IMG/VR virus record: IMGVR_UViG_3300037225_000325
Location: 1-54,618 of that record
Source of the DNA: a virus
Lineage: Duplodnaviria > Caudoviricetes
Length of the DNA stretch: 54,618 bases
Direction: 5' to 3' (one strand)
The position numbers and the translations under genes were made by a program. This document shows positions 2,815 through 54,618 of this stretch, one piece after another; positions within the stretch are counted from its first letter, which is position 1, and each line of letters starts with the position of its first letter. Below the pieces are notes generated by a model, which saw only the letters and a list, made by a program, of their open reading frames with translations, was not told the origin of the DNA and ran no database searches.

Positions 2815-2815
2815 A

Positions 2816-3256: not shown

Positions 3257-3260
3257 ATGC

Positions 3261-3482: not shown

Positions 3483-4965
3483 CGTAGCCCCCGATAATTA
3501 CCCGTTTGCATGGATCGCTTATCATTATCCGTGCTATCATCCCGTAAGGGAAAAGCCCTACCCTTCTCCACACAGCCCTCTTGGCGTACTCTCCGATGGC
3601 CCCGAGGGATGTCCCGTAATCTCCGGACCACGTATGGCCGCCATCTGCCGAGAAGGAAAATACTATATTCCCCCCGACGCCCATTTCAGCATCTACTATG
3701 AGCCGGTTGATCCTGATGCTGTTAAGTTCTCCCTTCTTGTCTGCAAGGATTTGAGCGGTTCTGAAGGCAACGATAGGAGTGCCGCCATCATCCTGGTACA
3801 CAGAATCGGTCATCTGATAGATGTTCCCGCTTTTCCAATCACCCACAAGGTGCATATTGTTGAAATAGGCGTAGCAATTACTAAGGTGGCGGTTCGTCTG
3901 ATATATGTAGGCTGCCCCGTAGCTCGACCGTTCATGCCACGCCATCATGGGATCGGGGATAGTGGAGTCAAAAACAAAGGTCTGGTTCATTGAAGGGGAT
4001 GTTACGACCCAGAAACTATGGCCGTCTGCTTCGTAACAATAGCTGAATGCGTCCGTCCATGGGGTCCATTTCTGCATTTGGAACGTAATGGCGGGAGGGG
4101 AGATAACCTGCACAGCATCACTTGAAATCTGTACGGCTCCTATGAAACTTGGTCCGTCGTTCACCCGCCGCGCTCCGAGCATAAAAAGCCCGCCGTTCCC
4201 CCTCGCTACAGAAGCCGGCGCAGGAGTCCCGTAGTCCATGACGGCGGCTGTCATACGGGAGAATGGGAAGCCTTGGGCGGTAGCTATCCCGGCGTTGTAC
4301 CAAATCTCCGTTGTCACTTGCTTTACAAAGAAGAGCTGCTGCTGTTCGTACCAGATTGATTGAACGGGGTCCGGGGTCGCTTCGATGGACGCTACGGCCA
4401 GCGTACTCCAGTTCAGGCCGTTGTAAAGATCGGAACAGAAGACATTCATCGAATTGGCTTGGGCTACAACAAAATACCCGTCTGCGAATTCGAGGGCAGT
4501 AACTCCTGTCGAGGGGAAGCCGCACGTTCCATAGCCTCCGCTGCCCGCGAAAAAGGCGCTACTGGTAAATGTATACGTGACGACGTTGTAGATGTAGCCA
4601 AGCACCCCATCAACTATCATGAGCTGGTTCCCGCCGACTCCGCCAACGGCCAGCCCGTTGTCCTTCATAATTACCCTGCCGATAGATGTCCCGAGCGATG
4701 CCAACGGGGCGGATACTGTGCCGGAGGTATTGACCGAGTAGAGGTTTGTCCCTGCTACCACGTAGAGAAGCCCGTTAAATACGTGCATTTTACGAACCAC
4801 ATACGCCCCAGCATTGGTCCATAGTGTCGTTCCCGGCGTCCCAACTAGGGAGAAAGGAGATTTTGACCCCTTGGCGTTCATCTCTACGAAAAAATTGACG
4901 AGGCGGGAGGCATCTATGTTTGACGAGCGGCCTATGTAGCCGGGGCCTACGAGCTCAAAGATCAT
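3475..4965 (-). CDS. Packaged-DNA stabilization / tail hub protein, P22 gp10-like
   Basis: 496 aa, beta-propeller-like. C-terminal FSFSADGGHTW...GAIGEY...WRRVG...ISDP signature; synteny fits. Confidence 0.8.
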   Translation of the reverse strand: MIFELVGPGYIGRSSNIDASRLVNFFVEMNAKGSKSPFSLVGTPGTTLWTNAGAYVVRKMHVFNGLLYVVAGTNLYSVNTSGTVSAPLASLGTSIGRVIMKDNGLAVGGVGGNQLMIVDGVLGYIYNVVTYTFTSSAFFAGSGGYGTCGFPSTGVTALEFADGYFVVAQANSMNVFCSDLYNGLNWSTLAVASIEATPDPVQSIWYEQQQLFFVKQVTTEIWYNAGIATAQGFPFSRMTAAVMDYGTPAPASVARGNGGLFMLGARRVNDGPSFIGAVQISSDAVQVISPPAITFQMQKWTPWTDAFSYCYEADGHSFWVVTSPSMNQTFVFDSTIPDPMMAWHERSSYGAAYIYQTNRHLSNCYAYFNNMHLVGDWKSGNIYQMTDSVYQDDGGTPIVAFRTAQILADKKGELNSIRINRLIVDAEMGVGGNIVFSFSADGGHTWSGDYGTSLGAIGEYAKRAVWRRVGLFPYGMIARIMISDPCKRVIIGGYVD

Positions 4966-6256: not shown

Positions 6257-6355
6257 CTACTTCTTTTTGCCTTTCGACTTCACCGTTGTCTTGGCCTTCG
6301 GTGCATAGCCGAAGTGGCTCTGTGTCTTTGACACGCTAGCCTTCTTTTTAGTCAT
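6257..6355 (-). CDS. Lys-rich micro-protein (32 aa)
   Basis: MTKKKASVSKTQSHFGYAPKAKTTVKSKGKKK; RBS GGGAGGTG; start overlaps the end of the upstream GT gene. Confidence 0.55.
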   Translation of the reverse strand: MTKKKASVSKTQSHFGYAPKAKTTVKSKGKKK

Positions 6356-9720: not shown

Positions 9721-10707
9721 TTAGTACGCCTTGTCCTTTTTCAGAAAAGGCAAGCCCCTATTCGCAGCACCTTCGGAAAACTCCTGCCACCGCTGTTGAT
9801 TCAGCACGTTCCCCTCACTCCCGCATATCGCAGAGAGCATCTTGGCTGCTTCTTTGAAGTCCGCATTAAATCCCAGGCATTCAAGGAGCAATTCCTTTGC
9901 CCGTTCAATCTCTGTCGTCTGCCCCGCTCCCGCCATGTTGAGATATGCCCAGGCAGTAGAGTGCAACGCATCGGGGTAGTGCTGGGTGAATTTACCCAGC
10001 TTCCTGCTATTGCGCCTGAATCTCTCCCCCCAATAGATCGCGCTCGGGAGATCAACCACAGCAAAATACTCCCTGACGGCAAGATATTGAAGCCTCAAAT
10101 CATTAGGATCAGCAGCAAGCTCCTCTCTCAAGATCGCCAGGTCTCGCGCCGTGTTTGGTCTGGGCTGGTATTGAATCATGATGGGGGGGGAGGGAGTAAA
10201 TGCGGCATACGGCGTGTATCTCGCCTCGTGAATCCTCCCCGCAAAATACATATTGCTGTTGTTTCGGAACGCTTTCTCCCTTGGAAATTTTCCACCACAG
10301 TTGTCGTACAGAACGCAGTTGACCACATCTATCTCGGGAGCCACGGTGTCGATTGCATATTTCAGGGCTGCAATAGCCCCCTTATCGGGGCGCTCGTCGG
10401 CGTCCATAAAAAGAATCCAGTCCGTATTGAGCAAATCGAATGACTTGTTGCGGGCCGCTGAGAAATCCACGCCGGTATAATCAGGCGGGGCCGGCCAGTT
10501 AAACTCACCTACCGATAATCTTTTTATTCCCATCTCCCGGAGAATATCGACCGTTTTGTCGTGCGAACCAGTGTCAACAACCGAAATCTGATCTACTCCT
10601 TTGCAGGCTTCAATACACTGCTTTATCTCGTTCTCCTCATTTTTGACAATCAAAGCCAGTCCGAGCGTCTGTCTCATCCTCCCTTTGCTTCCCTTAACCA
10701 GCTCCAT
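9721..10707 (-). CDS. GT2 glycosyltransferase with TPR-like C-terminus (SunS/flagellin-glycosyltransferase type)
   Basis: LIVKNEE...VVDTGSHDKT...DFSAARN...WILFMDADE...GRIHE motifs, followed by a helical repeat tail. Confidence 0.85.
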   Translation of the reverse strand: MELVKGSKGRMRQTLGLALIVKNEENEIKQCIEACKGVDQISVVDTGSHDKTVDILREMGIKRLSVGEFNWPAPPDYTGVDFSAARNKSFDLLNTDWILFMDADERPDKGAIAALKYAIDTVAPEIDVVNCVLYDNCGGKFPREKAFRNNSNMYFAGRIHEARYTPYAAFTPSPPIMIQYQPRPNTARDLAILREELAADPNDLRLQYLAVREYFAVVDLPSAIYWGERFRRNSRKLGKFTQHYPDALHSTAWAYLNMAGAGQTTEIERAKELLLECLGFNADFKEAAKMLSAICGSEGNVLNQQRWQEFSEGAANRGLPFLKKDKAY

Positions 10708-20748: not shown

Positions 20749-21042
20749 TTACTGCCACCGCTTCGTAAACGGGTTGTACTTCGGCTGATAACCCGGCTGC
20801 CGGTAGTCGAACTGTTTCTCGTGGGGATTATACTGAAGTCGATCTCCGGGCTGTGTGCGCTGGAACTGGTTTGCATACGGGTTGTACTGCAACTGGTCGT
20901 TCTGCCCGTGATAGCCCGGCCTGGGGGGAACCCCGTTGTCATAGCCGTTGACCGGAGTACCCCCAAGCAGAAGGAGGAGAGATGAGATGATTGATAGAGT
21001 AAGGGAGACCCGCTTGACTCTGTAGAATAGTTTTGGGGTCAT
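20749..21042 (-). CDS. Small exported/membrane protein with three YNP repeats
   Basis: Hydrophobic N-terminal segment, then LQYNPY / LQYNPH / PKYNPF. Confidence 0.6.
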   Translation of the reverse strand: MTPKLFYRVKRVSLTLSIISSLLLLLGGTPVNGYDNGVPPRPGYHGQNDQLQYNPYANQFQRTQPGDRLQYNPHEKQFDYRQPGYQPKYNPFTKRWQ

Positions 21043-21097
21043 GTCTGAGGTCTCCCTGAGTGGTTGATTTTCCAAGTAAGTACTTCGGTGGGTTGGA

Positions 21098-21430
21098 TCA
21101 ATAGTTCCCCTCCAGAGTGATAAGGTTATTGTCAATGAGCACCTGGGCAAGTCCGTTTGAAAGGCCTTCTATCAGGCGTTCCTTTTCTTCTTCCTTGCCA
21201 ATCTTGTCCATGCAGTAAATTATATCTACGCAGTGTACGATCTCGTGAAAGAAAGTCTCCAGAAGAGCCGAGTCGGGTCTCTGGTTCCCATTGCAGTCAA
21301 CCCCGCTGATTCGTATTTCCTTCAAGGCGTGGTCGGCCTGCCCCTGATAATCATCCCTTTCCCTGAAGTGGTGGGGGTAGATAACCGTGTAGGTGTGGGG
21401 TCCGATCTTGAGGGAAGGGGGGAAGGTCAT
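21098..21430 (-). CDS. HExxH metallopeptidase-like protein
   Basis: MTFPPSLKIGPHTYTV...ETFFHEIVHC...E..I.GLSNGL.QVL.DN. Confidence 0.65.
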   Translation of the reverse strand: MTFPPSLKIGPHTYTVIYPHHFRERDDYQGQADHALKEIRISGVDCNGNQRPDSALLETFFHEIVHCVDIIYCMDKIGKEEEKERLIEGLSNGLAQVLIDNNLITLEGNY

Positions 21431-29759: not shown

Positions 29760-29931
29760 TACCTTAACGATGGAAACAGGAGACACCAAGATGAAATGGC
29801 ATTTGCCCTGGACGACAAATACTTTAAACCACTGGCCCGGGCAACTTAAATCATGCTGCCCATCTCTCAAATCCACACTCTCTCACATCGGCGTATTGCT
29901 CTGTGGGTGGGCGGCAAAAAAGGAGGAAAGA

Positions 29932-30810
29932 ATGGCTACTTTTACGATTATGCACCTATTCAATGATTCAGTCCTGTTTGAGATTGAGGCCGATAGTTTC
30001 ATAAAAGCCGTTGAAGCGGCGCTTAAAGCACGTGCCGACCTTCAGGGTGCCAACCTTCGGGGTGCCAACCTTCGGGGTGCCAACCTTCGGGGTGCCGTCC
30101 TTCGGGATGCCAACCTTCAGGGTGCCGACCTTCAGGGTGCCGTCCTTTGGGGTGCCAACCTTCAGGATGCCAACCTTCGGGGTGCCGACCTTCGGGGTGC
30201 CAACCTTCGGGGTGCCGACCTTCGGGGTGCCGTCCTTCGGGATGCCAACCTTCAGGATGCCAACCTTCAGGGTGCCGACCTTCGGGGTGCCAACCTTTGG
30301 GGTGCCAACCTTCGGGGTGCCAACCTTCGGGGTGCCGACCTTCAGGGTGCCGACCTTCAGGGTGCCAACCTTTGGGGTGCCAACCTTCGGGATGCCAACC
30401 TTCAGGATGCCAACCTTCAGGGGGCCGACCTTCGGGGTGCCGACCTTCAGGGTGCCAACCTTCGGGGTGCCAACCTTCGGGGTGCCAACCTTCGGGGTGC
30501 CAACCTTCGGGGTGCCGACCTTCGGGATTTTCTCAGCACTAATTCCGTCCAAACAGTACTTACTATCACCGATTGGGGGCAACTGCCCGATGATCTTACC
30601 CTCGAACTAATGCGCCACGATGCCGAATCGTGCGGGGAAGAGGCAATGACTGTATGGGCCAAGGGCGGGGCCTGCCCGTTTAATAACAGTGTCCGTGATT
30701 ATAAATTCACCGAGAGCCACGCCCTATGGCAACCAGGTCCGCCCACGATGAGAGGCCGCAAGTTGCTTGAAGCGCTTTGGGTCAGCAAAGGAGGCCGCAT
30801 ATGGGATTGA
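29932..30810 (+). CDS. Pentapeptide-repeat protein
   Basis: 33 A(D/N/V)L(R/Q/W)(G/D) repeats; RBS AAGGAGG before MATFTI. Confidence 0.9.
   Translation: MATFTIMHLFNDSVLFEIEADSFIKAVEAALKARADLQGANLRGANLRGANLRGAVLRDANLQGADLQGAVLWGANLQDANLRGADLRGANLRGADLRGAVLRDANLQDANLQGADLRGANLWGANLRGANLRGADLQGADLQGANLWGANLRDANLQDANLQGADLRGADLQGANLRGANLRGANLRGANLRGADLRDFLSTNSVQTVLTITDWGQLPDDLTLELMRHDAESCGEEAMTVWAKGGACPFNNSVRDYKFTESHALWQPGPPTMRGRKLLEALWVSKGGRIWD
30031..30525 (+). repeat. 15-bp tandem repeat x33 (ggtgccaaccttcgg variants)
   Basis: Directly visible in the sequence. Confidence 0.95.
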
Positions 30811-36026: not shown

Positions 36027-36479
36027 ATGTCACAGTATTATGTAGGAGTAAAGATCGTGTTTGCCTGGTCGGAAGTGAAGGATGGTAAAGAAGGGTATGC
36101 CGTCAAGTATCCCGATGGCTATACCTCGTGGTCTCCAAAGGACGTTTTTGAATCGGCTTATCTTCCCATGGGTGATGGTAACGATAACTCCGTCACTCAG
36201 GCCATGGTGGACCTGTTCACGGGCAAGGAGTACGTTGCGAGGGATGAGGATGACGGGAAGACAACCGTAGTCCAGTGCAAACTGGCTTCTGGCTTCATGG
36301 AGTACGGGGTAAGCTCCTGTGTTGACCCAAAGAATTACGACTCCATTATTGGGTCAGAACTGGCCCTCAAGAGGATCAAGGATGTTGTCTGGAAGTGCCT
36401 CGGTTTCGTGGTCCAGTGGGGCAAATTCGGCATCAATACAAACATAGGATTGAACGCAAAAGCCCGTAACGAGGGTTAA
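36027..36479 (+). CDS. Phage gp49/gp66-family protein (Acb4-like nucleotide-sponge candidate) with an N-terminal GY.SWSPK domain
   Basis: YVGVKIV.A...GY.V.YPDGY.SWSPKDVFE.AY, then L.SGF...G.SSCVDP.NYD..IG...A...I...VW...GF. Confidence 0.65.
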   Translation: MSQYYVGVKIVFAWSEVKDGKEGYAVKYPDGYTSWSPKDVFESAYLPMGDGNDNSVTQAMVDLFTGKEYVARDEDDGKTTVVQCKLASGFMEYGVSSCVDPKNYDSIIGSELALKRIKDVVWKCLGFVVQWGKFGINTNIGLNAKARNEG

Positions 36480-36500
36480 GACCCTCAATAATAAGGCTGT

Positions 36501-36535
36501 ACCCGGTTCGGCCCCACCGGGTTATCAAAAGGGCC
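36501..36535 (+). ncRNA. H-type pseudoknot element, copy 1
   Basis: P1 ACCCGGT/ACCGGGT; loop GGCCC pairs with downstream GGGCC across an A-rich linker. Confidence 0.55.
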
Positions 36536-36547
36536 AATGGTGAAAAG

Positions 36548-36778
36548 ATGGGTAAGGGTGATCGGTTCTCGTCCATAAGGCGAAAGCAGGCTGCGATTAA
36601 AACGGCAGAAGCTACCGGCCAGATTGCGGATAGCCTTGAGGTACGCATGGCATTGCTGGACCGCATGAAAAACGGAGAGATAACGCTTGAACAGCTTCGG
36701 GATGAACTGAAGAGAATCAAACGGGGAGCGAAGGCGGCGGGAATGACTACCCGAGAACAAGCATACCGGGAGGGGTGA
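36548..36778 (+). CDS. Hypothetical basic protein
   Basis: 76-aa ORF co-oriented with the early arm. Confidence 0.6.
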   Translation: MGKGDRFSSIRRKQAAIKTAEATGQIADSLEVRMALLDRMKNGEITLEQLRDELKRIKRGAKAAGMTTREQAYREG

Positions 36779-43525: not shown

Positions 43526-43549
43526 AGGGGCCACCTTCCGATGACCCCT
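43526..43549 (-). terminator. Terminator hairpin where the early and late operons converge
   Basis: AGGGGTCATC-GGAA-GGTGGCCCCT followed by TTACTT on the minus strand. Confidence 0.6.
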
Positions 43550-43718: not shown

Positions 43719-44072
43719 CTACAGCCCCGACCGGTTGATGTCCTGATTGGGGTCTGACTTAAATGCCGCAACTACAGCCGTGTCGATCTCCTTCATGGCA
43801 GCCGTGATCTCCGGCATCTTCGGTGCAATCACCGTGGCATAGGTATTGGCCGCACCGCCTGTTAAGCTCTGGCTCGCCACGATAGCCGCCATTTGAACGT
43901 TCTGCTCAAAGGACACCTGTGCCGTGGCGGGGTCTTCAATCTCCTGTGCTAAGTTGTAGGCGATAGGGATTGCCGAGGCGATGAGTTTGGTTACAGGGTC
44001 CGGATCGAACTGTGCGAAGATAGCTGCCAACTTTGAAAGTCCACTGAAAATAGACATGAAACTGAAAGCCAT
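43719..44072 (-). CDS. Hypothetical lysis-region protein
   Basis: RBS AAGGAGG; amphipathic N-terminus. Confidence 0.6.
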   Translation of the reverse strand: MAFSFMSIFSGLSKLAAIFAQFDPDPVTKLIASAIPIAYNLAQEIEDPATAQVSFEQNVQMAAIVASQSLTGGAANTYATVIAPKMPEITAAMKEIDTAVVAAFKSDPNQDINRSGL

Positions 44073-44084
44073 AACGTCCTCCTT

Positions 44085-44309
44085 TTATTCTACTGGTGTG
44101 AAGTCCACATAAAACGCCCTGCCAGGGAAAAACTGCTGCAATACCGCTGGATTGGTAATAAACATTTCCATGCTACCACTTGGTGTGGCTGCACAGAATC
44201 TCTGGTCTTCCGGAATGGACTTGTCGTAGGTGCAGTTGAACTTCGCCGTTGCACTCTCTCCCACATATTTTGTGACTGAACTGACTGTGAACTTTGCTCT
44301 TACTGCCAT
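44085..44309 (-). CDS. Conserved small phage protein (VRAKF...ATPSG...NP...YVDF)
   Basis: Recurrent phage motif; RBS AAGGAGG. Confidence 0.65.
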   Translation of the reverse strand: MAVRAKFTVSSVTKYVGESATAKFNCTYDKSIPEDQRFCAATPSGSMEMFITNPAVLQQFFPGRAFYVDFTPVE

Positions 44310-44323
44310 AACGTCCTCCTTTT

Positions 44324-44839
44324 TTATGGGACTACCCTTAAGGCATCTTTGAATGATAGATCGTCCCGCAGCATAACAGCGAGACGTATAGCTCTTGATT
44401 TTACCTCTCGTGCATACTCAGAGTCAAGCAAGTGGGCAGCCGCCTCGCGATAGAGTCCGGCGCGGAGGGATGCCAACATGTGCTTGAACTGGAGCACCTT
44501 GCCCACTCCCATGTTAAAGACCATGTCCAGAAGAACGTGCTGTCGGTTTTCGCTGAGGCCTGCATAGCAATCGATGTGGGAGCAGGCACGCTCTGCCACA
44601 TCAATGTCGTCCTCAAGCAGTCGTGTCTCTTCCGCCCGAGTGATGGTGTCTCCTACCTTGGAGATAGGCCTGCCGATAATGAAGTAACATGGAGACGCCT
44701 CGCAATTATGGCCCACGCCCACGCTGAGAATCCCCTTAGTGTCAAGATATGCCACCATACGCTCGCCCTCTTCACAGGTGAGTTGCCGTTCCTCATCGAC
44801 GTGGTAAATCAGTTGGCGCTTAAGTAGATCGGACGTCAT
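44324..44839 (-). CDS. Endolysin, T4-lysozyme-like (GH24)
   Basis: EEG....YLDTKG..SVGVGH catalytic region; DMVFNMG...F..ML......AA..LLDS. Confidence 0.85.
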   Translation of the reverse strand: MTSDLLKRQLIYHVDEERQLTCEEGERMVAYLDTKGILSVGVGHNCEASPCYFIIGRPISKVGDTITRAEETRLLEDDIDVAERACSHIDCYAGLSENRQHVLLDMVFNMGVGKVLQFKHMLASLRAGLYREAAAHLLDSEYAREVKSRAIRLAVMLRDDLSFKDALRVVP

Positions 44840-44848
44840 CCTTCACCT

Positions 44849-45190
44849 TCAATCCCCTGTCTTTTGCCTCAACAGAGTCTTTACATCACCCTGGATGATC
44901 TTCACCTCAGACCACAAATCATCTGACTTCTTCAATAGTTCGGCCCTGCTTTCCTTCTGACCTGTTTTCAGTTCTTCTATCTTCGCTGTCAGTCCTGAAT
45001 TTTTCTCCATCACCCCCTCATGGTCATAGCAATGGCCCTGGCACACGGCTGGTGAAGCTAAAGGTCTATTCAGTGCGAGATCAGTTCTTTTCGTGTCGCT
45101 TCCCAGACGCTTAATAACGACAGCCCCGGTGGTGACGATAAATGTGCTGAGAGGAATTGCAAGCAAGAGAGCTTCAGGCATGTCCATCAT
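44849..45190 (-). CDS. Membrane-anchored coiled-coil protein (holin/antiholin-like)
   Basis: N-terminal TM segment plus coiled coil; directly upstream of the endolysin. Confidence 0.55.
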   Translation of the reverse strand: MMDMPEALLLAIPLSTFIVTTGAVVIKRLGSDTKRTDLALNRPLASPAVCQGHCYDHEGVMEKNSGLTAKIEELKTGQKESRAELLKKSDDLWSEVKIIQGDVKTLLRQKTGD

Positions 45191-45233
45191 AGTGTCTACC
45201 CCTTTCCAGTGTCAGTGTGCGGTCCGCTCAAGG

Positions 45234-45386
45234 TTACATCCCCATTCCTATTCCCATCTGTGGCTGAGACTGATAAGCACCAGCATCGAGGATTACCACA
45301 AGGCTGCCTGCTGTATCGGTTATCCGTACTTTATTTGTTCCATCGAAAACATCTGCCGTACCTGTCCATACTGAGCCGTCGGTCAT
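45234..45386 (-). pseudogene. Paralogous copy of the C-terminus of the upstream beta-helix gene
   Basis: MTDGSVWTGTADVFDGTNKVRITDTAGSLVVILDAGAYQSQPQMGIGMGM aligns with LYTGKANVFDQTGTVRVTDGGGNEVVLTDAGGTQSLAQSAVGFGM. Confidence 0.6.
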
Positions 45387-45429
45387 GGTCACCTTACAGG
45401 ATTTCCGTTGTCAATAGTGGGTTCCATGG

Positions 45430-47535
45430 CTACATCCCAAAGCCCACCGCGGATTGCGCCAGGGACTGAGTTCCTCCTGCATCCGTTAGCACGACCTCGT
45501 TCCCCCCTCCATCCGTGACCCTCACGGTCCCGGTTTGGTCAAACACATTCGCCTTTCCCGTGTAGAGTCCGACCCCGGCCAGGAGTCCCCTCGCGGGAGA
45601 GCCGAACATTGTCTTAAAATTGCCGTTTGCAGGGTCAACCCACAGCGGATCACCATAGCGGCTATGAGATTCAGCACTGGCCTGCACTCCGTCGATCCCT
45701 GCCATCGCAACGTCAGCCTGGACCGCTGTTCTGTAGGCATTAAAATCGGTATAACCAGTGCCTTTGAAATTTGCTACATTGCCGCCATTGGGGCACCAGT
45801 ACACGTTATAGTCGATGTAGACACTGTTGATTGTTCCCCCGTTGGAAGCGATTACAACTGCTGTCCCTGAGTCTTTATCTGTGTGAATAGGGGTCCTATT
45901 TCTTATGACGAGTCCAGCCACCTTGACGTTGGCATTAGTCCCCGCCGATGGCTGAACATGAAAAGCGTGGCCGGCATAGGCAGCAGGGGTGTTGGAAGAC
46001 GAGGGAAGGTGGTCTATAGATATGTTTTGGAAGGCATCCTTTGTCACTCCGTTGGCACTTCCGTATGTCCCTACCCCGTTGACAATCATATCGTAGACAA
46101 TTCCCCACGTAAAACTATTACCTCCAGCCGCTCCGGTAACGGCATTGAGGCTCGGGCCTTGATAAGAATTGTACTGTTTGAATCTGGTAAGAGTATTCCC
46201 TGCCGAATTACCGCTAATCGACAGAAGACCACTCCCTCCTCCACTTCCACCGTAAGGATAGAATGACGTGGGGTAGGTAAAGGGCCAACTGCTGTCAGCC
46301 GTATAGCCGAGGTTGTATCCAGTAATATCGCTGAACGTGAAATTATTTCCGACTATCGAAATGCCTACACCTCTGATGTTATGAAAAAGAAGGTTCGAGC
46401 CAGTTGTCCCGCTTGCGCCGGTTGACAGGCCATACGCCCCGTTAGCTGCGCCCAAGTTATAGAATTGCTCATTGGTAAAACTTACAGTACCAGAAAATGT
46501 AGCCGCCATTGACATTCCGTTTAGGGCATCGTGGTACTTATTTCCGCTGGACGTGACCGGTCCCGTAGACGTCCCGTAGTAGTTTACAACGCTGGACCCT
46601 ACAAGTGTGACGGCACTGAAGTCGCTGTTTGTCACAGTTATCCCAGACGATCCAATGTCTCTGAACCAACCTTCATAGTTTGACCCGACGCCAGGTCCAA
46701 CAATGGTGACACCTGATACCGTAGGGCCGTTAGCCTGGTATAGATACAAAACTGTCCCAGCGGCGTACTTTATCGTACTATTTAGATAAGACGTGCTAAC
46801 CATCGCAGTCCCGTCAAAAATAGTAGCAGAATTGCCACCTTCCATATCGAGGTTAATCCACGACCTGTAGTTATGCTGATTCAGGACTGAGTAGTTTTTG
46901 TTGCTTGCGAGTATTGTCCCAGTGGTCGGGTCTTCTCCCACGTTGACATAGAGTAGCGTGCCTGTCGTTTTCCAGCAGACATGATTTGAGGTGGGAGTGG
47001 TGCAGCTTGCGTTGTCTTTCGTGTCAACCGTGAGGAAGATATCTGAACCGGCCTTGCGGTACACAGCGACCTTAACCTCTGTATCTGCCGTTGTATGGTA
47101 GACGTTGCTGCCGTCTGAGGTCCATGACAGGGTAGCAGGATCATAGAAGGCATACAGCTTTGGTTTCGCTCCTGTTCCGTAACTCGTAGTTGTAATCGTA
47201 TCATTACTGGCTGCCGTTCCCCCAGCTCCAGTGGTGGCGTAAAAGCTGTACCAAGTGTCCCCAGAGTTCATATATACGATCTCTCCGTGAGACAGGGTAC
47301 AGGCTTCGTTGCCGGACTTGTTGACGTCTTCAGGATGGTGCAGCCAGGGAGAGGCAAGCGTTCCGCTGTTGCTCGTGGCTCCTGCCGCTGCCACCCAGTA
47401 ACAGCGAGTCACAGTTGCGGGACAGGTTCCCGCGCCGCCAGCCGTCCCGTAGCCACCAGACACACAGGTCGCGGCGTGGCTGAACCCTGCCAGCACCAGA
47501 AAGATTGCAAGAGAAAGAAAGAGTTTGAGTTTCAT
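45430..47535 (-). CDS. Signal-peptide-bearing pectin-lyase-like beta-helix protein
   Basis: MKLKLFLSLAIFLVLAGFSHA signal; SNSGTLASPW, GDTWY, YGTGAKP, DYNVYW and DPLWVDPANGNF..GSPA motifs; RBS AGGAGG. Confidence 0.75.
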   Translation of the reverse strand: MKLKLFLSLAIFLVLAGFSHAATCVSGGYGTAGGAGTCPATVTRCYWVAAAGATSNSGTLASPWLHHPEDVNKSGNEACTLSHGEIVYMNSGDTWYSFYATTGAGGTAASNDTITTTSYGTGAKPKLYAFYDPATLSWTSDGSNVYHTTADTEVKVAVYRKAGSDIFLTVDTKDNASCTTPTSNHVCWKTTGTLLYVNVGEDPTTGTILASNKNYSVLNQHNYRSWINLDMEGGNSATIFDGTAMVSTSYLNSTIKYAAGTVLYLYQANGPTVSGVTIVGPGVGSNYEGWFRDIGSSGITVTNSDFSAVTLVGSSVVNYYGTSTGPVTSSGNKYHDALNGMSMAATFSGTVSFTNEQFYNLGAANGAYGLSTGASGTTGSNLLFHNIRGVGISIVGNNFTFSDITGYNLGYTADSSWPFTYPTSFYPYGGSGGGSGLLSISGNSAGNTLTRFKQYNSYQGPSLNAVTGAAGGNSFTWGIVYDMIVNGVGTYGSANGVTKDAFQNISIDHLPSSSNTPAAYAGHAFHVQPSAGTNANVKVAGLVIRNRTPIHTDKDSGTAVVIASNGGTINSVYIDYNVYWCPNGGNVANFKGTGYTDFNAYRTAVQADVAMAGIDGVQASAESHSRYGDPLWVDPANGNFKTMFGSPARGLLAGVGLYTGKANVFDQTGTVRVTDGGGNEVVLTDAGGTQSLAQSAVGFGM

Positions 47536-47545
47536 GGTGGCCCTC

Positions 47546-48574
47546 CTAATTCCCCGTCCAGGAACCGTTCTGACCAAGCAAATCCCAATAACCTGTCACT
47601 TCACACCCAAGAGTAATAGCGGTCTGTCGCACAGTTCCAGATATGATACCACCCGTACAGGTAGCTCCTGCCCCCGCCCCTGTGCAACATGCCCACGGAG
47701 CACCGGCGGCAGTACAGGATGTGGCTCCTGCCCAGTTAGTTGCGGCAAAGTAAAAAGTATCTGTCCCGTTTGGCCTTAGCTGAATCGTCTGTGCTGCAAT
47801 CACCATTTTCGATACCACCGTGCCAGCTACGGCTGGAGGCAATCCAATTATCTTGGTTGCCGTGGCTCCTGAGTTATTGCCTATGATAATTTGGGCATTG
47901 GGAACTTTCTTAACGGATACCGAAGATAGGACATAATTCACAGCCTCGCTTGCTACCTGAGAGAATACAGGGTCGGTTGTGTCCGCTGCTCCTGCCTTGA
48001 TATACCAAACCAACGTTCCGACAGTGGGAATGAATGTTGTTCCTGTCACGCCGCCCAAGGACACTCGGAACCCTGTGCCTGGAGTTGTAACGGCACTAAA
48101 GGTGGCCGTGACCATGTAGGTCGCACCCGCTTCGATTCCCATAGCGACGGTTTTGCTGAATGAGTTGGCCCCGTTAGTGGTGTCGTTGATAGTCATAGTG
48201 CCCGCTGCTTCCGCGAAGTACCCTGCACCTACAGTATGATGGACAACCGTATAGGCCGGGGCAGCTCCAAAAGCCGCAGCAAGTTCACTTCCTCTCGTCA
48301 GACCGACAGCAAGAGGGGGAGAGTAGCCTGTATAGGTCGCAAAGCCGCCCGTGGTATTTACCGCAGTAGCAAGCGCCGTCGCCACTCCCGTTCCCGGCGT
48401 GATTCCACCTAACGCTGTCCCACCGCTATTGGTCTGGATGTCGCCTGCAGAGCCGCCGGGGGTGGCAGAGCCGGAAGAGCCGCCACTATCGAACCCCCAG
48501 CCGAAAGCATATACGTTAGATGACGCCCACAGGGTAAAGAATGCGATAAGTATGAAACTGAGTAGTTTTTTCAT
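47546..48574 (-). CDS. Signal-peptide-bearing fibre-like protein with a Cys-rich motif
   Basis: MKKLLSFILIAFFTLWASSNVYA signal; PGGSAGDIQTN and GTGVATALA fibre motifs; CTAAGAPWACCTGAGAGATC. Confidence 0.7.
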   Translation of the reverse strand: MKKLLSFILIAFFTLWASSNVYAFGWGFDSGGSSGSATPGGSAGDIQTNSGGTALGGITPGTGVATALATAVNTTGGFATYTGYSPPLAVGLTRGSELAAAFGAAPAYTVVHHTVGAGYFAEAAGTMTINDTTNGANSFSKTVAMGIEAGATYMVTATFSAVTTPGTGFRVSLGGVTGTTFIPTVGTLVWYIKAGAADTTDPVFSQVASEAVNYVLSSVSVKKVPNAQIIIGNNSGATATKIIGLPPAVAGTVVSKMVIAAQTIQLRPNGTDTFYFAATNWAGATSCTAAGAPWACCTGAGAGATCTGGIISGTVRQTAITLGCEVTGYWDLLGQNGSWTGN

Positions 48575-48577
48575 GGT

Positions 48578-48937
48578 TTACATCCCCTGGTTCTTGTAGT
48601 AGACAATGCAGGTTGCCCCGGTCCCGGATATGCTTAGAAAAAGCCCTTTGTAGAAAACAGTTGGAAGAGCCGATCCGCCGCTATATGCCGCCCCGATCGT
48701 AATGCCAACGCCGACCACGTTCCCCGATGCAGCCGAGTCGTTGTCGTAGACCGTGCAGGTTGCAGTATTTGTCCCGTTGGTAAGTGCTTGAACCCCGCAG
48801 AGGGTCCCGCCTTTAGTTGTATTCTGAATTGTACCCGAACTCGTCTGAAGCCCGCTTGAGATGCAGGGCGAATCTGCTGCTCCCGCGAGAGACACTGTGG
48901 TCAGGAAAATAACTACGGCAAGGATTATTTTCTTCAT
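48578..48937 (-). CDS. Signal-peptide-bearing small beta-sandwich virion-accessory-like protein
   Basis: MKKIILAVVIFLTTVSLAGA signal; 4 Cys; VYDN..AASG...GL...I.GT...VYY; RBS AGGAGG. Confidence 0.7.
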   Translation of the reverse strand: MKKIILAVVIFLTTVSLAGAADSPCISSGLQTSSGTIQNTTKGGTLCGVQALTNGTNTATCTVYDNDSAASGNVVGVGITIGAAYSGGSALPTVFYKGLFLSISGTGATCIVYYKNQGM

Positions 48938-49162
48938 GGGGCCTCCTATGGTTTCAAAATCTGATATGTAAACGTCTGCCCTCCGGCTGTTAATAAGCAT
49001 TGAGGGCTTCCTGGTTGCCATGTGGGGTCGAAGAAACCTATCATATCCTAATTTCCTCTTAAAATTCTCCAGTTTGTCCCGTTGCTCTGCATATCACACC
49101 ATCTACTTAAAATCCTATCTATAGGCCGCAAATAGAAGGATTAGCATCTGCATAAGTTACCT

Positions 49163-51259
49163 CTAATTAGTTTCAATTTTCCATCCAAAAGTCCATGTAG
49201 TTACTCCTGGAACGGCGGTACAGTTGACAGTAAAATATGTTGCGCCTATCGTGTCTACCCATACAGCCCCAATAGGAGTGGTAGTTGTATTGGTGCCCGT
49301 AATTGTTATGTTTTCTGCAAGAGGTGTGACATCCAAGCCATGAGCAATAACAACTGATGTCGCAGCTGCAGCTATCACGTTTGAGCCATGGGCTGTCGTC
49401 TTCAGTAATCCAGTATTTCTTGTGATGTCATAGGTCAGCAGTTGAGCGTTGGTTAGGCCGGTTGCAAATTTCGTAGCGAATGAGTTAAGGGTTGCGTTGT
49501 TTCCAATGATTTTGAGGTTGCCTGCCGCAGGGACAGCCGATGATGAAAAAAGATAGAATGCAGTCTTTCCAGTCGCAGCACTGGTATCATTAGAGAAGTG
49601 GTTTCCAATTACCTCTGCGTACGTGTCTGTTGTCTGGGGATCGAGTACCAGAGTCTTGTTGCCCGTTGTTGCATTGACAGTCCCGGTCTGCCCTCCGTTA
49701 CTGCAATCATTAAAGGTGACGCCTTGTATCTTGCTGTACTTCGCCTGAGAGTATATCCCATACCCTTCACTGTTGATGTAGGTGCCCATGACCGTGAGCG
49801 AAGTCCCCGGCGCGGCGTATATTCCCTGAGTAATCCATGGTCCTGTCTGATCCAGATACCCAACTTGTTCTATCCGCCCACCCATGACGGTAAGAGAACC
49901 TGCAAGGATGCCAATGCCACGAGTCGCTGTTTTCGTTATGGAGGGGTTATTGACTAAGACATTTCCACTTACGATGTGTATTCCTTCCCAGATAACCGCC
50001 CCAGGGATGTTTGTATGAGAAATCTGAGGAGCATTCAGGATAACCGGGATGTAAGAGTCAATATGGATTGCCGCGCTGATAGCGGGAGTGCCACCCCCAG
50101 CCCAAGGGGACTCAACGAAAACGGGATCACTAACAGTGATGGCTCCTTTTTCCATACCCGCGTAGGTCCCTGTGATGTAAAGCCCGGCATAGACAGCCCT
50201 GTAGGATTGGATGAGGGATAATTGAATCATGTTGGCCCGATCTATCCAATAGTCGTACAGGTTGTGTTCTGCCTGGATGTTATGAACACGGATGTTTGCA
50301 GAAGCAGCGCCGATCTTTAACCCTGCCGTGCAAGAACTTAACCACAGATTGTGGATGGATACCCCGTTAGAGCCTGGGGCGATCTCTAAGGCAATAGTGG
50401 CGGCACCCATTCCACTTGATACATCACCTTGTATTATCTCCATGTCGCTAATGGTAGCCCCATTAGAGGCCATTTTAATAATGCCACCAGTTATCAAATG
50501 ACTACCGGCGAGAACTGTTGCTCCTTCTCCTGCTCCATAAAAGTTGAATCCCTCCCAAACTCCATTAGTAATTAAAACTTGTGAGGCTAAATAGTATCCA
50601 CCGGCGGGAACATAAACGCTTCCTCCAGTCCCGGTAGTCAAAACCGAGGCTATGGCACATTGAAACGCGGTACTGTTATCTGTTCCTACCAACGTAGAAT
50701 AGTTTAGACCAGCAATGGCCCCAAACATAGTTGGTGTGGCATAGGTAAGTCCACGAACTTGGCCGGAAGAGAAGCCGTAGAAGACTTGACAAAGCCCGGC
50801 ATTGAATGAAGCGTCAAAAGTTAATAGTCCAGTTCCGGTTTGTGTAATTCTCCCTGAGCCAGGTGCAACCATAATGGGGACAGTGCTGGTAAGACTTCCA
50901 GTGAAGGTAAGGGAAGAAGTTATAAACAGCCCCTTTCCAGCGGCTACGGCAGCAGTATGAGCAGCAGAAAGGGTAGCGTACATCCCGCTATTCACCATTC
51001 CAGCCAACCCTGGCCATAAATTGCCCAACTGTATTTTTCTGTTCATCGGCACAGTCAAGGGGTTCTTTACCGTCACTACAATGTCAGTGGCGGAAGGCGC
51101 AGTATCCTCAGTCAGTGTTTGTAATGGATAAGGCAAGGCATTACCCGAACATACCCACGAAGTCCCGTTCCAAAAACAAGGCGGGGACTGAGAAAAAGAA
51201 CTGCTGGCAAGAACCATGATCAGTAATGCCGCAATCGATAGTGTCCACAACTTTTTCAT
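49163..51259 (-). CDS. Signal-peptide-bearing tailspike-like protein (pectate_lyase_3-type beta helix)
   Basis: MKKLWTLSIAALLIMVLASSSFS signal; FGA...DNSTAFQCAI...VYVPAGGY; C-terminal V.IAHGL..TP. Confidence 0.8.
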   Translation of the reverse strand: MKKLWTLSIAALLIMVLASSSFSQSPPCFWNGTSWVCSGNALPYPLQTLTEDTAPSATDIVVTVKNPLTVPMNRKIQLGNLWPGLAGMVNSGMYATLSAAHTAAVAAGKGLFITSSLTFTGSLTSTVPIMVAPGSGRITQTGTGLLTFDASFNAGLCQVFYGFSSGQVRGLTYATPTMFGAIAGLNYSTLVGTDNSTAFQCAIASVLTTGTGGSVYVPAGGYYLASQVLITNGVWEGFNFYGAGEGATVLAGSHLITGGIIKMASNGATISDMEIIQGDVSSGMGAATIALEIAPGSNGVSIHNLWLSSCTAGLKIGAASANIRVHNIQAEHNLYDYWIDRANMIQLSLIQSYRAVYAGLYITGTYAGMEKGAITVSDPVFVESPWAGGGTPAISAAIHIDSYIPVILNAPQISHTNIPGAVIWEGIHIVSGNVLVNNPSITKTATRGIGILAGSLTVMGGRIEQVGYLDQTGPWITQGIYAAPGTSLTVMGTYINSEGYGIYSQAKYSKIQGVTFNDCSNGGQTGTVNATTGNKTLVLDPQTTDTYAEVIGNHFSNDTSAATGKTAFYLFSSSAVPAAGNLKIIGNNATLNSFATKFATGLTNAQLLTYDITRNTGLLKTTAHGSNVIAAAATSVVIAHGLDVTPLAENITITGTNTTTTPIGAVWVDTIGATYFTVNCTAVPGVTTWTFGWKIETN

Positions 51260-52969
51260 TTACCACCCTCTCCTTGCAACGACCCGTTGCAACCAGTGTG
51301 CCGCCGTTACGGCTCCGTACTGCCATGTTGAATAGGATAATGCGCCCAACGCCCCGCCCCCCGTTTGGTACTTAATACTATTCCGGTTCAAATGGTCAAG
51401 GGTTATGGGGACGTTTACCCCGTAAGCGTTGTTGACATCGCGTATCCACTGCGTTCTCATCCCCGTCGTATAGCCAAGCTCCCCCGTTACATTGACGAAA
51501 TCCAGCGTGGAAAAGAGAGGCATCACCCCTATATTGTGGGTAAAAGTGATGACCTGGCTTGCTGAGATTGTCGAGACCGCGATATCTCCTGAATCGTACA
51601 TCCCCTGATAAGCGTAGGGGATAATCCCTGTAATTGCCGATGCACCTGCCGTCGCCTCTCCTACGAAAACTTTCGTGGTTGGCACGGCAGCAGATCCGTT
51701 GCCCACATACATCTTCATTTCGGATATATTGAAGGTATACTGGTTTGAGGTGACGCTCGGGGTTCCATACCACTGATATACGGGGGCTAGTACCGTTGAC
51801 CCGCATGTCCCGTCAAAGGGATCAATCCAGAGATAATTAAGCCCGGAAGCCGTCAGCAATGTCCATGAAGCAGCCGTAAATGAGCCTACCAGGTCGGTAG
51901 TCCCGAACACCCCGTATGGAAGCCCTCCAGCGGTCCACTTTGTTCCCGTAACGACCAGGGGCACGGCAGCACTTAGATTTTGTGCTGCTATAACCAATGT
52001 GCCGGATGTCGCTGGGAGAAAATTAGGCAGGCCGCCAGTGGTAATGGGGCCAGACAGTACAGTGTGCCGCACTGGGACGAGGTTCTGCGGGAGAGTCAAT
52101 ATTTTCCCGTACCATGATGTTCCATCGCTAAAAATAGTTATCTCATCATACGGGACAAGCGTCGGGTTGACTTTTCCATCGACGGTCGCAATGATCGTGA
52201 CTGTGTACGTCGTGCCGGTATAGGCATTTTTGATCTTCAGCCACGAGCCGGGAGGAACAGTAGAAGCTCCAGGCAGTGTCAGGGTGATGCTCAATGCAAG
52301 TGCGCTGCTCACGACATAGGTCTGAAAAAGGCTTGCATAGGTAAAAACAGTATCAGCCGATAATGGCACTGTGGGGTAAAGGGGCATGGCGCTCCCAGAC
52401 CCTTGAGGATAAATGATACCGGAAGCCACGACCGAGACACTTGAATCAAGGGTGGTCGAGATCCAATTAACAGTCACGGTCGTAACCCCTCCACCCATCG
52501 AAACAGCCGAGACGTACCCGTAAATATACCCGCTCGTGACGGTGGCCTGTACAACCGTGCCAACTGAAAAAATAGACAGGAAGTTCCCCACCATGGAAAA
52601 TTGAGTTGGGCCTACATACAACGGCGCTACCGATTGAACGATGAACTGAAGGGTGGAGGGGACTTCGTTCGGCATTGACGAAACATTATCCTTTGACCAG
52701 ATAAGGTTGCCGTTGATGTCATAAAGCACAAGTTTTGTGTAACCGGTAAGCCACACATCGGCTTCTCCGTTTGAATCGAGGACTATGGGGTCTGTGTTGG
52801 CAGTCCCGCCCGTTGAATCGGTGTAGGTGGCCATAGGGTAGGTGGGAGGCGCCCCGAAAACGACAGCGGTCCCCGGCAGGACCGTGTAGAGATAACCTCC
52901 GGCCAGGGGAATCCCCGTACCAGGGTAAAAAGCCTTAAAGCGAGGTGTGGGGCACAGACTTACTGACAT
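51260..52969 (-). CDS. Tail fibre/spike with a P22-type head-binding N-terminal domain
   Basis: G.PLAGG.LYT...GT...ATYTD..G..ANT.PIVLD.NGEA.VWL; no signal peptide. Confidence 0.75.
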   Translation of the reverse strand: MSVSLCPTPRFKAFYPGTGIPLAGGYLYTVLPGTAVVFGAPPTYPMATYTDSTGGTANTDPIVLDSNGEADVWLTGYTKLVLYDINGNLIWSKDNVSSMPNEVPSTLQFIVQSVAPLYVGPTQFSMVGNFLSIFSVGTVVQATVTSGYIYGYVSAVSMGGGVTTVTVNWISTTLDSSVSVVASGIIYPQGSGSAMPLYPTVPLSADTVFTYASLFQTYVVSSALALSITLTLPGASTVPPGSWLKIKNAYTGTTYTVTIIATVDGKVNPTLVPYDEITIFSDGTSWYGKILTLPQNLVPVRHTVLSGPITTGGLPNFLPATSGTLVIAAQNLSAAVPLVVTGTKWTAGGLPYGVFGTTDLVGSFTAASWTLLTASGLNYLWIDPFDGTCGSTVLAPVYQWYGTPSVTSNQYTFNISEMKMYVGNGSAAVPTTKVFVGEATAGASAITGIIPYAYQGMYDSGDIAVSTISASQVITFTHNIGVMPLFSTLDFVNVTGELGYTTGMRTQWIRDVNNAYGVNVPITLDHLNRNSIKYQTGGGALGALSYSTWQYGAVTAAHWLQRVVARRGW

Positions 52970-52978
52970 AATGTTCTC

Positions 52979-54583
52979 CTATAGAAAGGGCTTTACGCCA
53001 AGTCCTTCCCCGACCTTTATTTTTTCGATCAGTTCATCGAAGGCAGTTTTTGACCATTCGATCCTCTGGGCATGAACCATCTCTATCCGTTCAAGACAGA
53101 GGTCTGTTGCTTCTTTTATCGTATTCCCTATCCCGATGACAGCCCCAAGGTTATCGCCCTTGTCCTGGGAAATCGAATAAATCTTGCTCTTGTCCCCGTA
53201 TTTGTTCCTGATCTTCACCCACTCTTCTATTTCTTTCGGATACTTGACTTCCACGTCGAAATTATCCTTCCCCGCCGAGGAGTGGAACTTGAGGATAGCC
53301 CCATATTTGGCCCCTATCTCTATCTTGGGCGGCTTCCCTCGGGCTACATCGCAGACGACACGGCTCCAGTTCTTGATGAGCTTACCGCACAGCACTTCAG
53401 ACGAGGGCGACCCGGCCCGGCAGCATATATCGAGCGGGAAGCACTTACCTTTCTTGGTGATGATGCTTTCCATCGAGTAGAGGCCCCGGTAGCCGGCGAG
53501 AGGCATAGTCTTCATGTCGGACGCCTTTTTGATCCCTTCTGCGGTGAAGAATGGAGCCATGCAGTCGTTTACATTCTTGATTATATGAGGTAAATCATCA
53601 TTTTTGTACATCCTTCCGATCAGGGCATCGCCTTTCTTCTCATACCCTATCATACCCCAGTCGCCGAATACGCCGTCCGAATTAACCCCGTCATATCCAG
53701 GCTCGCAGGCGGCGTCGAGGATGCTTTCACAGATGAAGACGATCTGTTCTTTCCTCACCCCGAGGTCATAGGCGAGTTTGTCCATGAAATAAAGGAAGTC
53801 CTCGATGGTATTGTCCACGCCATCAATCACGGTGGTCTCAAAATCTCCGCGATAGCACGATGACTTTATGACCAACTTGGCCCCCTTCGGCTGTTCCTTG
53901 CACCACTCTCTGAGTTCGTCTATCCCTCCCTCGATGATGGTACAGGGGATAACAGGCAGACCGGCTTTATCGAGGGTTTCCTTGAAGAGTATCCGGTCGA
54001 TCTCGTATATTTCTGCCAAACCACTACCAAAGACGAATTTCCCCCTGCTTCTCAGGTCTTCCTGCAGGGCCCCTTTGTAGAAGTCGAAGAAGGTGAACAG
54101 GTCAACGTCTTTGATGCCCGGCTCGAAGTATTCCAGGCGTTCGATGCCCTTAACGCCGTCCCCGATCATGGCCTTGTCGGACGTTGGAAACGAGGATTCC
54201 CACGGGCAGTAATATTCTCTCTTCTTGAACTCCGTCATTTCTTCAAGGATGTACCCGAAGAGTCCGAAGTCGTAGCACCGGACAGTCATATCGGAGATGT
54301 CGTCAGGGGCAGTCTTGATGCCTTTTGCCTCTTGATAATCCCCACTATGGAGTCCTTCTTCCTCGGCCTTATCCTTGATCTTCTGCCATGTAGGGTTATC
54401 GTGCATCTTGAGGAATCCTACGGCCTGCCTGCGGGTAAGGAAGAGCTTACCATCCGGGGAAAATCCTTTCATATCCTCTGTCACGTTCTTGAGTTTTTTG
54501 GCAGAGATAAGGCTCTTGTGCGAATCATTTTCACGGCCCGTGGTGATGGTATCGTCCTGCTTGATGGAGGGTTTTAGGGTCAT
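52979..54583 (-). CDS. PurD/GAR-synthetase-like ATP-grasp protein with a small N-terminal domain
   Basis: VFGS...EIDR...K......GLP, VIK, GYEKK and YRGLYSME...LDICCRAGSP ATP-grasp pattern. Confidence 0.7.
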   Translation of the reverse strand: MTLKPSIKQDDTITTGRENDSHKSLISAKKLKNVTEDMKGFSPDGKLFLTRRQAVGFLKMHDNPTWQKIKDKAEEEGLHSGDYQEAKGIKTAPDDISDMTVRCYDFGLFGYILEEMTEFKKREYYCPWESSFPTSDKAMIGDGVKGIERLEYFEPGIKDVDLFTFFDFYKGALQEDLRSRGKFVFGSGLAEIYEIDRILFKETLDKAGLPVIPCTIIEGGIDELREWCKEQPKGAKLVIKSSCYRGDFETTVIDGVDNTIEDFLYFMDKLAYDLGVRKEQIVFICESILDAACEPGYDGVNSDGVFGDWGMIGYEKKGDALIGRMYKNDDLPHIIKNVNDCMAPFFTAEGIKKASDMKTMPLAGYRGLYSMESIITKKGKCFPLDICCRAGSPSSEVLCGKLIKNWSRVVCDVARGKPPKIEIGAKYGAILKFHSSAGKDNFDVEVKYPKEIEEWVKIRNKYGDKSKIYSISQDKGDNLGAVIGIGNTIKEATDLCLERIEMVHAQRIEWSKTAFDELIEKIKVGEGLGVKPFL

Positions 54584-54618
54584 TCTTCCTCTTTCCCCAT
54601 CTTACGCCGTTTCACCCG
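54580..54618 (-). CDS. 3' end of an upstream gene (RVKRRKMGKEEE*), possibly the continuation of 1..1767
   Basis: TGA overlaps the ATP-grasp ATG; in frame with the ORF leaving base 1. Confidence 0.45.
   Translation of the reverse strand, partial: RVKRRKMGKEEE

Follow-up and report, generated by a model that had tools for sequence, protein, structure and literature searches.

Four consecutive minus-strand genes in the receptor-binding module of the viral contig IMGVR_UViG_3300037225_000325 (IMG/VR; Caudoviricetes), which we analyzed over its full length of 54,618 nucleotides (nt; hereafter the window), each begin with a Sec-type signal peptide. The genes, termed g1 (49163..51259, 698 amino acids (aa)), g2 (48578..48937, 119 aa), g3 (47546..48574, 342 aa) and g4 (45430..47535, 701 aa), lie between a tail fiber gene and the endolysin gene, and the sequence features of their N-termini make export of all four products through the Sec pathway very probable. 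Tentatively, we favor a reading that we hold to be possible rather than probable, in which the exported products would act as free, disulfide-stabilized proteins that bind or degrade glycans and are not docked onto the phage particle. A preliminary description of this DNA had reported four consecutive, co-oriented genes with Sec leaders; these are present as stated, all four pass our leader scan and their relatives keep the leaders. Their placement between fiber and endolysin is likewise correct, except that a 113-aa gene intervenes between g4 and the endolysin.

Leaders were called with a four-criterion heuristic scan of our own, not with SignalP, applied to the 79 crude open reading frames (ORFs) of the window. 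A Sec-type (signal peptidase I) leader was defined by a basic n-region, an h-region of about 10-15 hydrophobic residues and small, uncharged residues at positions -3 and -1. Six of the 79 ORFs were flagged, g1-g4 being four of them; the other two calls were a 51-aa ORF that is probably spurious and a start at an internal Met of the ORF at 20749-21150. Random placement of four such genes among 50-70 genes would make them adjacent with a probability of 7e-5 to 2e-4. The predicted leaders span residues 1-23 of g1 (51191-51259), 1-20 of g2 (48878-48937), 1-23 of g3 (48506-48574) and 1-21 of g4 (47473-47535). Each N-terminus holds two Lys, 14-15 hydrophobic residues and no acidic residue, and positions -3 to -1 read SFS, AGA, VYA and SHA, respectively, with small residues at -3 and -1 in all cases. 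Tat substrates and lipoproteins were considered and rejected, as the n-regions contain no twin arginine and no lipobox Cys is found at +1. The translation starts agree with these assignments for g2, which begins at an internal ATG of a 147-aa ORF, and for g4, which begins at an internal ATG of a 715-aa TTG ORF, both leader-giving ATGs being preceded by AGGAGG 5-7 nt upstream (5 nt in g2). The start of g1 has the ribosome-binding site AAGGAGAGGGTGG upstream; overall, such sites are strong for g1, g2 and g4 and weaker for g3. No ATG lies just after the leader in any of the four genes.

Conservation of the leader could be followed through the g4 family, for which a library of 1.8 billion proteins returned 70 matches, including the query sequence itself. 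Among the 69 homologs, 37 passed a strict leader test and about 13 more had a hydrophobic start that was evident by eye, while six start exactly at the mature motif without a leader and the remaining 13 or so are fragments or unclear. Homologs starting past the hydrophobic segment, an outcome named in advance as refuting, therefore amount to only six of the 69 relatives, a leaderless minority. In an alignment of seven family members (A2), a leader is present in all seven, and C24 and C79 of the mature N-terminal part are invariant. The leaders in this alignment are alike in kind and divergent in sequence, as expected for functional signal peptides.

Structurally, the mature part of g4 is modeled as a right-handed beta-helix of the NosD/Beta_helix kind. 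In an alignment of g4 with 21 relatives (A1, 22 sequences), 13 of the 22 members matched NosD (PF05048) and 14 matched Beta_helix (PF13229); g4 itself had no Pfam match at E <= 0.01. The AlphaFold model built from this 22-sequence alignment shows the beta-helix with a pLDDT of 77.7, and its Foldseek matches comprise beta-helix glycoside hydrolases and lyases, the Klebsiella K1 lyase, phage depolymerases and tailspikes, and the periplasmic AlgG, with low TM-scores (0.2-0.33) that speak to the fold only. A true NosD copper chaperone was rejected as an identity for g4, given the phage context and the lack of a Pfam match of g4 itself. Beyond the conserved end of the beta-helix, the family has a short, low-confidence C-terminal tail (45430-45560 in the window), which ends in Phe or Tyr in four of six aligned relatives (P0003, P0005, P0014 and P0017) and in Gly-Met in g4 and in its homolog from locus L011. 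This tail may be a sorting or anchoring signal.

The tail fiber encoded directly upstream of g1 (51260..52969, minus strand, 569 aa) has no leader and contains two Cys. As a whole protein it matches no Pfam or PHROG family, a search of PDB sequences gave nothing meaningful, and a scan of viral contigs returned one partial relative, in L002. Residues 1-105 of the fiber constitute a modular N-terminal domain that is found on many receptor-binding-type proteins: 178 relatives of widely differing length match the first 110 residues (E <= 0.01), and the C-terminal Pfam domains behind this part include Collar, Pect-lyase_RHGA_epim, Beta_helix, SGNH and Peptidase_S74. From this modular distribution, we infer that the domain is a particle-attachment module. 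A hidden Markov model (HMM) of the domain, built from 103 distinct N-termini of fiber relatives, matched the fiber with an E value of 1.7e-43 and found none of g1-g4 (best E 0.62 or worse for g2-g4; unreported for g1).

Complementarily, the alignments of g1 point to a tailspike whose N-terminus has been exchanged. Following its leader and a Cys-x8-Cys loop, g1 has a body for which a right-handed beta-helix of the tailspike/depolymerase type is supported by a weak match to PF12708 (Pect-lyase_RHGA_epim; E 4.9e-5, 23.7 bits against a cut-off of 27, residues 193-254 only) and by neighbors in the ESM Atlas, namely beta-helix clusters of phages and bacteria with scores of about 0.9, which serve as leads only. 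Residues 85-211 of g1 share 39% identity (E 9e-11) with residues 97-222 of a leaderless, 659-aa tailspike in L011, which carries K1-lyase_C (55.7 bits) and for which a PDB sequence search gave nothing meaningful. Six proteins that start with the fiber-type N-terminal domain match residues 94-283 of g1, and two of these six, P0097 and P0101, also share the first ~230 residues of the fiber. Hence, g1 looks like a tailspike body in which a leader occupies the place that the N-terminal domain has in its relatives; as the relatives combine domain and beta-helix in a single chain, the window would split the same parts between the fiber and the leader-bearing g1. Closer relatives of g1 were sought in 5.8 billion proteins, where it matched only itself, in PDB sequences, with nothing meaningful, and in a scan of viral contigs, which contained no relative. 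Searches with tblastn against 50,697 GenBank phage records yielded a single 64-residue match for g1 and no match for g3 or g4, and Megablast of the region 44000-54618 against the same records gave no match.

The TAA stop of the fiber gene directly abuts the ATG of g1 in the same frame (51257-51262). Read-through of this stop would fuse the fiber to g1 and turn the leader into an internal hydrophobic segment. As abutting genes share a frame by chance in one third of cases, the arrangement may mean translational coupling only. A complex prediction for the fiber (569 aa) and residues 24-215 of g1 returned a score of 0.00, which is evidence in neither direction.

In two other viral contigs, L029 and L030, in which the tail-module families phrog_12985 and phrog_578 of the window also occur, the fiber-type domain itself stands behind a leader. 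The proteins encoded at 7998-11843 in L029 (1281 aa, 34 Cys) and at 7998-10880 in L030 (960 aa, 20 Cys) each have a 20-residue leader abutting the fiber N-terminal domain, which the domain HMM recognizes at residues 27-115 (E ~1e-34). Their genes come after those for ejection proteins, that is, in the usual position of a fiber, and are followed by two more leader-bearing genes. A leaderless counterpart with the same domain in L031 (7968-8765, 265 aa) has 0 Cys, so that leader presence tracks cysteine content sharply among these proteins, albeit in a small sample of three. Altogether, a leader precedes the N-terminal domain in four of 120 relatives of that domain. If the domain is the particle anchor, the L029 and L030 phages would export their main fiber.

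The two smaller products are less readily assigned. The mature part of g2 comprises 99 aa with four Cys; g2 matches no Pfam or PHROG family, and no relatives were found with the family libraries. For g3, which shows a leader, a Gly-rich segment and then a Cys-loop insertion near the C-terminus, a beta-sandwich core is probable; it matches no Pfam or PHROG family either, and its AlphaFold model (pLDDT 41, from a four-sequence alignment) is unusable for a fold call. All three g3 relatives carry a leader, namely P0073 (57% identity), P0074 and a 261-aa protein in L011 (37% identity, E 1e-30). The insertion, at residues ~279-306 (47650-47740), consists of short, Gly/Ala-rich Cys loops that are absent from P0073 and from the L011 homolog; similar inserted Cys-Thr-Gly...Cys-Thr-Gly loops occur in two g4 relatives, P0026 and P0033. 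Of the tailspike, beta-helix or fiber motifs that the preliminary description had ascribed to the mature proteins, the beta-helix was recovered in g1 and g4, but g2 and g3 match no family.

Its description of the mature parts as Cys-rich proved overstated. The quoted Cys motifs exist and, in g1 and g4, are concentrated close to the mature N-terminus, and the Cys content is above that of most structural proteins (0-1.0%, most 0.7% or less). However, the content of mature g1, g3 and g4 (1.0-1.6%; 4% in g2) does not exceed that of the phage glycosyltransferases and helicase (1.6-1.9%). The proposal of export and oxidative folding outside the cytoplasm is nonetheless well supported by leaders that diverge yet are kept, by the invariant C24 and C79 of g4 and by the link between Cys content and leader in L029-L031.

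The leader-bearing g3/g4 pair recurs in three further loci that contain phage structural or lysis genes (L003, L006 and L011). In every clear-phage locus with a long g4 match, the g4 relative has a leader, the g3 position before it holds a Gly-rich protein that likewise has one, and a protein of 115-123 aa comes before that. This small protein, at the position of g2, has a leader-like start in two of the three loci and none in L006, and it shows no detectable similarity to g2 in L003, L006 or L011. Locus L011 is syntenic with the window, encoding in order a tailspike, a small Cys-rich protein, the g3 homolog, the g4 homolog, a membrane/coiled-coil protein, a lysozyme and a lipoprotein. Between its g3 and g4 homologs lies an additional 274-aa protein (7072-7896) with a weak match to GHL10 (glycoside-hydrolase-like), no leader and no counterpart in the window. 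Locus L003 represents a complete phage of 47.9 kb, which has terminal repeats and whose coat protein is unrelated. There, the cluster is placed between the terminase and portal genes and adjoins a membrane/coiled-coil gene; upstream lies a further 803-aa leader-bearing protein, next to a glycosyltransferase-like gene (2815-4452). Pairwise comparison of g1 and g3 with the position-matched L003 proteins revealed no similarity. In L006, which lies within a Syntrophobacteraceae genome bin, the cluster is located between structural genes and a fiber gene. As homology covers g3 and g4, and the remaining correspondence concerns position, size and leaders only, the term conserved module has a basis in homology for g3 and g4 alone.

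Outside clear-phage loci, g4 relatives are found in cellular contexts (including L005, L008, L009, L013, L014 and L021), mostly with leaders and without phage neighbors. Two weaker matches, in L004/L024 and in the first gene of L025, lack a leader and come from contigs that are viral or unassigned. Among 96 genomes of the order to which the L006 genome belongs, three had g4 matches, a patchy distribution. The labels of L006 and of a fiber relative from a Syntrophorhabdales bin suggest an anaerobic, Gram-negative host.

With respect to its setting, the contig, from a short-tailed phage, is linear (54.6 kb; completeness estimate 67%) and encodes a P22-type coat protein, a portal, a scaffold and a terminase in addition to the two tail-module families named above, the coat sharing at most 38% identity with its nearest cultured relatives. 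The minus-strand run that contains g1-g4 begins with a 534-aa protein, followed by the 569-aa fiber, g1, g2, g3, g4, the 113-aa protein, the lysozyme, two small genes and a hairpin. The 534-aa protein (52979-54583), directly upstream of the fiber, has 14 Cys, matches no Pfam or PHROG family and has no relative in the scanned viral contigs. The 113-aa protein (44849..45190) has a membrane span at its N-terminus followed by a coiled-coil tail, a layout reminiscent of an inner-membrane spanin or a holin, and matches no Pfam or PHROG family; counterparts lie next to leader-bearing genes in L003 (8569-8973) and L011 (10329-10784). A lipobox scan of the whole window found no lipoprotein partner for it, the sole match being one unrelated frame read from two starts (36433-36666). 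The endolysin, a phage lysozyme (44324..44839, minus strand), was identified by PF00959 (E 1.8e-13) and phrog_7 (E 5.9e-19). After the last minus-strand gene, a terminator-like hairpin (43526..43549, minus strand) with a 10-pair stem, including six G-C pairs, probably marks the end of a late transcription unit with the fiber gene, g1-g4 and the lysis genes, although it is a weak indication; promoter and terminator scans of the window showed no enrichment of such sites, and Rfam and tRNA scans gave no matches.

Elsewhere in the window, two minus-strand glycosyltransferase genes lie between the coat and tail genes, inside the structural block. The product of the first (6348-8999) has 883 aa and combines a GT10-like (fucosyltransferase) domain with a GT2 domain; the second (9721-10707) encodes a 328-aa GT2 protein. 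The early or replication region contains a plus-strand gene for a 346-aa pentapeptide-repeat protein (29770-30810; PF00805, E 5e-86). The minus-strand ORF at 20749-21150, in which an internal Met gives a leader-like or membrane-span-like N-terminus, lies beside the probable large terminase gene; in L003, a membrane/coiled-coil gene occupies the matching place after the terminase.

We propose that g1-g4 represent receptor-binding-module proteins diverted into the Sec pathway. They would be made late, from one transcription unit with the fiber and lysis genes, and the leader would carry them across the inner membrane before being cleaved. In the oxidizing periplasm, the beta-helices of g1 and g4 and the smaller g2 and g3 would then fold with short disulfide loops. 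Unattached to the particle, the mature proteins would bind or cut polysaccharides of the envelope or matrix, initially within the periplasm and later, after the lysis genes have opened the cell, in its surroundings. The proposed benefit would be an easier escape of progeny and the removal of receptor-bearing debris or of matrix around neighboring cells. Export and cleavage as such, the disulfides, the glycan-directed activity and the absence from the particle are the parts of this account that we infer. Secreted enzymes acting on polysaccharide had been named as the alternative to docking in the preliminary description, and this alternative appears to fit somewhat better, because in g1 the leader replaces the N-terminal domain of its relatives, the g4 family is largely cellular and looks secreted, and precedents exist.

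Several observations weigh against free, exported enzymes. Enzyme activity is a guess at the level of the fold, given TM-scores of 0.2-0.33 for the g4 model, and four exported proteins with a conserved g3/g4 pair exceed the need of a single free depolymerase, with g2 and g3 having no assignable function. The genes are located in the receptor-binding module, and the abutment of fiber stop and g1 start suggests coupled, equimolar synthesis, as would be expected for partners. The domain-bearing fibers of L029 and L030, with a leader and 20-34 Cys, are hard to square with the notion that exported means off the particle. Finally, a minority of g4 relatives, some of them on viral contigs (L004/L024 and L025), have no leader.

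In a different account, which we regard as conceivable but rather doubtful, g1-g4 might fold with disulfides in the periplasm and join finished, fiber-bearing particles when lysis mixes the compartments, in which case the particle could perhaps bear a branched receptor-binding set that is partly built outside the cytoplasm. Such an addition is favored by the position of the genes directly after the fiber, with the stop abutting the g1 start, by the tailspike-type body of g1 and by the conservation of a multi-gene set. It also receives support from the genes at the fiber position in L029 and L030, which combine a leader before the domain with 34 and 20 Cys (0 in L031) and are followed by two leader-bearing genes, and from the four of 120 domain relatives with a preceding leader. 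P22 tailspikes attach in vitro to finished particles that lack tailspikes, so late addition is biochemically feasible. Docking at lysis would, however, have to proceed with proteins that lack the N-terminal domain and in which no other docking element was recognized, and the anchor role of that domain is itself read from its modular distribution. Moreover, most g4 relatives look like cellular secreted proteins, the leaderless fiber is already on the particle, and dilution at lysis would hinder efficient docking.

Two further explanations receive less weight than either free action or addition at lysis. Acting from the periplasm, the exported proteins could trim or mask the polysaccharide receptors on the surface of the infected or lysogenic cell, leading to superinfection exclusion or surface conversion that blocks other phages or the phage's own progeny, and they may cooperate with the phage glycosyltransferases. 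The two glycosyltransferase genes in the late region (6348-8999 and 9721-10707), the glycosyltransferase-like gene beside the 803-aa leader-bearing protein in L003, the L006 relative in a bacterial genome bin, possibly a prophage, and the patchy occurrence in three of 96 genomes of its order are in line with such protection. We nevertheless consider it improbable, as the annotated parts of the window revealed neither an integrase nor a repressor and the genes belong to the late structural and lysis unit, not to a region expressed early or in lysogeny; most exclusion proteins are small, and four genes totaling 5.6 kb would be costly. Least probable is that the hydrophobic N-termini play no part in export and the proteins stay in the cytoplasm for ordinary assembly, with the segment serving membrane contact at infection or with leaderless isoforms arising from downstream starts. 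The six of 69 g4 relatives that start at the mature motif and the small L006 protein without a leader at the g2 position would agree with unused leaders. Yet the complete n/h/c layout, including small residues at -3 and -1, is seen in all four segments, leaders are conserved in kind and not in sequence across relatives, Cys content tracks the leader (34 and 20 versus 0), and there is no ATG just past any of the four leaders from which such an isoform could start.

Among known systems, the tailspikes and depolymerases of podoviruses (P22, HK620, LKA1 gp49 and the Klebsiella K1 lyase) have a right-handed beta-helix body, as do g1 and g4 by prediction, and their genes close the block of tail genes beside a fiber gene, as do g1-g4; in addition, g1 shares a module with the L011 tailspike that carries K1-lyase_C. 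In contrast to g1-g4, which have a Sec-type leader and lack the N-terminal domain of the fiber, these tailspikes bind the particle through a domain at their N-terminus and have no signal peptide. A similar layout to that proposed for g1 and g4 is described for VexL, a bacterial periplasmic beta-helix depolymerase of the Vi antigen, which has a signal peptide and disulfides that are said to stabilize its N- and C-termini (PMC6003464). Of these features, g1 and g4 show the leader and the predicted beta-helix, and g4 the conserved C24 and C79, and they would likewise fold in an oxidizing periplasm. The likeness drawn here is one of layout; VexL is cellular and encoded with capsule genes, unlike the phage-encoded g1 and g4. 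WceF of Pantoea stewartii, a tailspike-like glycan hydrolase of bacterial origin, is described as exported and non-virion and acts on exopolysaccharide (PMC7949094); its gene is chromosomal, in an exopolysaccharide operon, unlike g1-g4, and the comparison here extends to the use of the fold.

Sec-exported and signal-anchor-release endolysins (PMC6116005) exemplify late phage products that exploit the Sec machinery of the host and stay in the envelope up to the time of lysis, and gp40 of phage PBR31 is reported as an esterase with a signal peptide (PMC10975493). Both are encoded beside lysis genes, as is g4 here and in L011, but they are hydrolases of peptidoglycan or lipids and not large beta-helix or fiber-like proteins of a receptor-binding module such as g1-g4. 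The nearest published case appears to be that of viral NosD-like genes of sediment phages, reported in 2026, which lie near structural genes, have glycosyltransferases on the same contigs and include one protein with a SignalP-predicted leader; roles in adsorption, lysis or adhesion are proposed there without a decision (PMC13452462). The g4 family matches NosD/Beta_helix in 13-14 of 22 aligned members, g4 among the 22, with g4 itself below Pfam significance. The main text of that study reports no run of several leader-bearing genes of a receptor-binding module such as g1-g4 and no family-wide leader conservation. Full-text literature searches, which covered that article apart from its supplements, found no description of exported tail fibers or tailspikes of tailed phages.

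Against this background, addition at lysis would amount to a two-compartment assembly, undescribed for tailed phages, in which Sec-exported, periplasm-folded host-recognition parts join the particle only when the cell is opened. We regard this as unlikely on balance but worth stating; it would cover g1-g4 here and, with the same reservation, could extend to the domain-bearing fiber itself in L029 and L030. The cytoplasm is taken to be the sole site of assembly for tailed-phage particles, and a signal peptide counts against a structural role in annotation pipelines. A conserved run of exported proteins of the tailspike and fiber type would imply either that phages routinely free such proteins as disulfide-stabilized extracellular enzymes or that receptor-binding parts can be made elsewhere and added at lysis. 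Either reading would change how receptor-binding and depolymerase genes are called in uncultured soil and sediment phages, and the genes point to a source of oxidatively stabilized, glycan-degrading enzymes.

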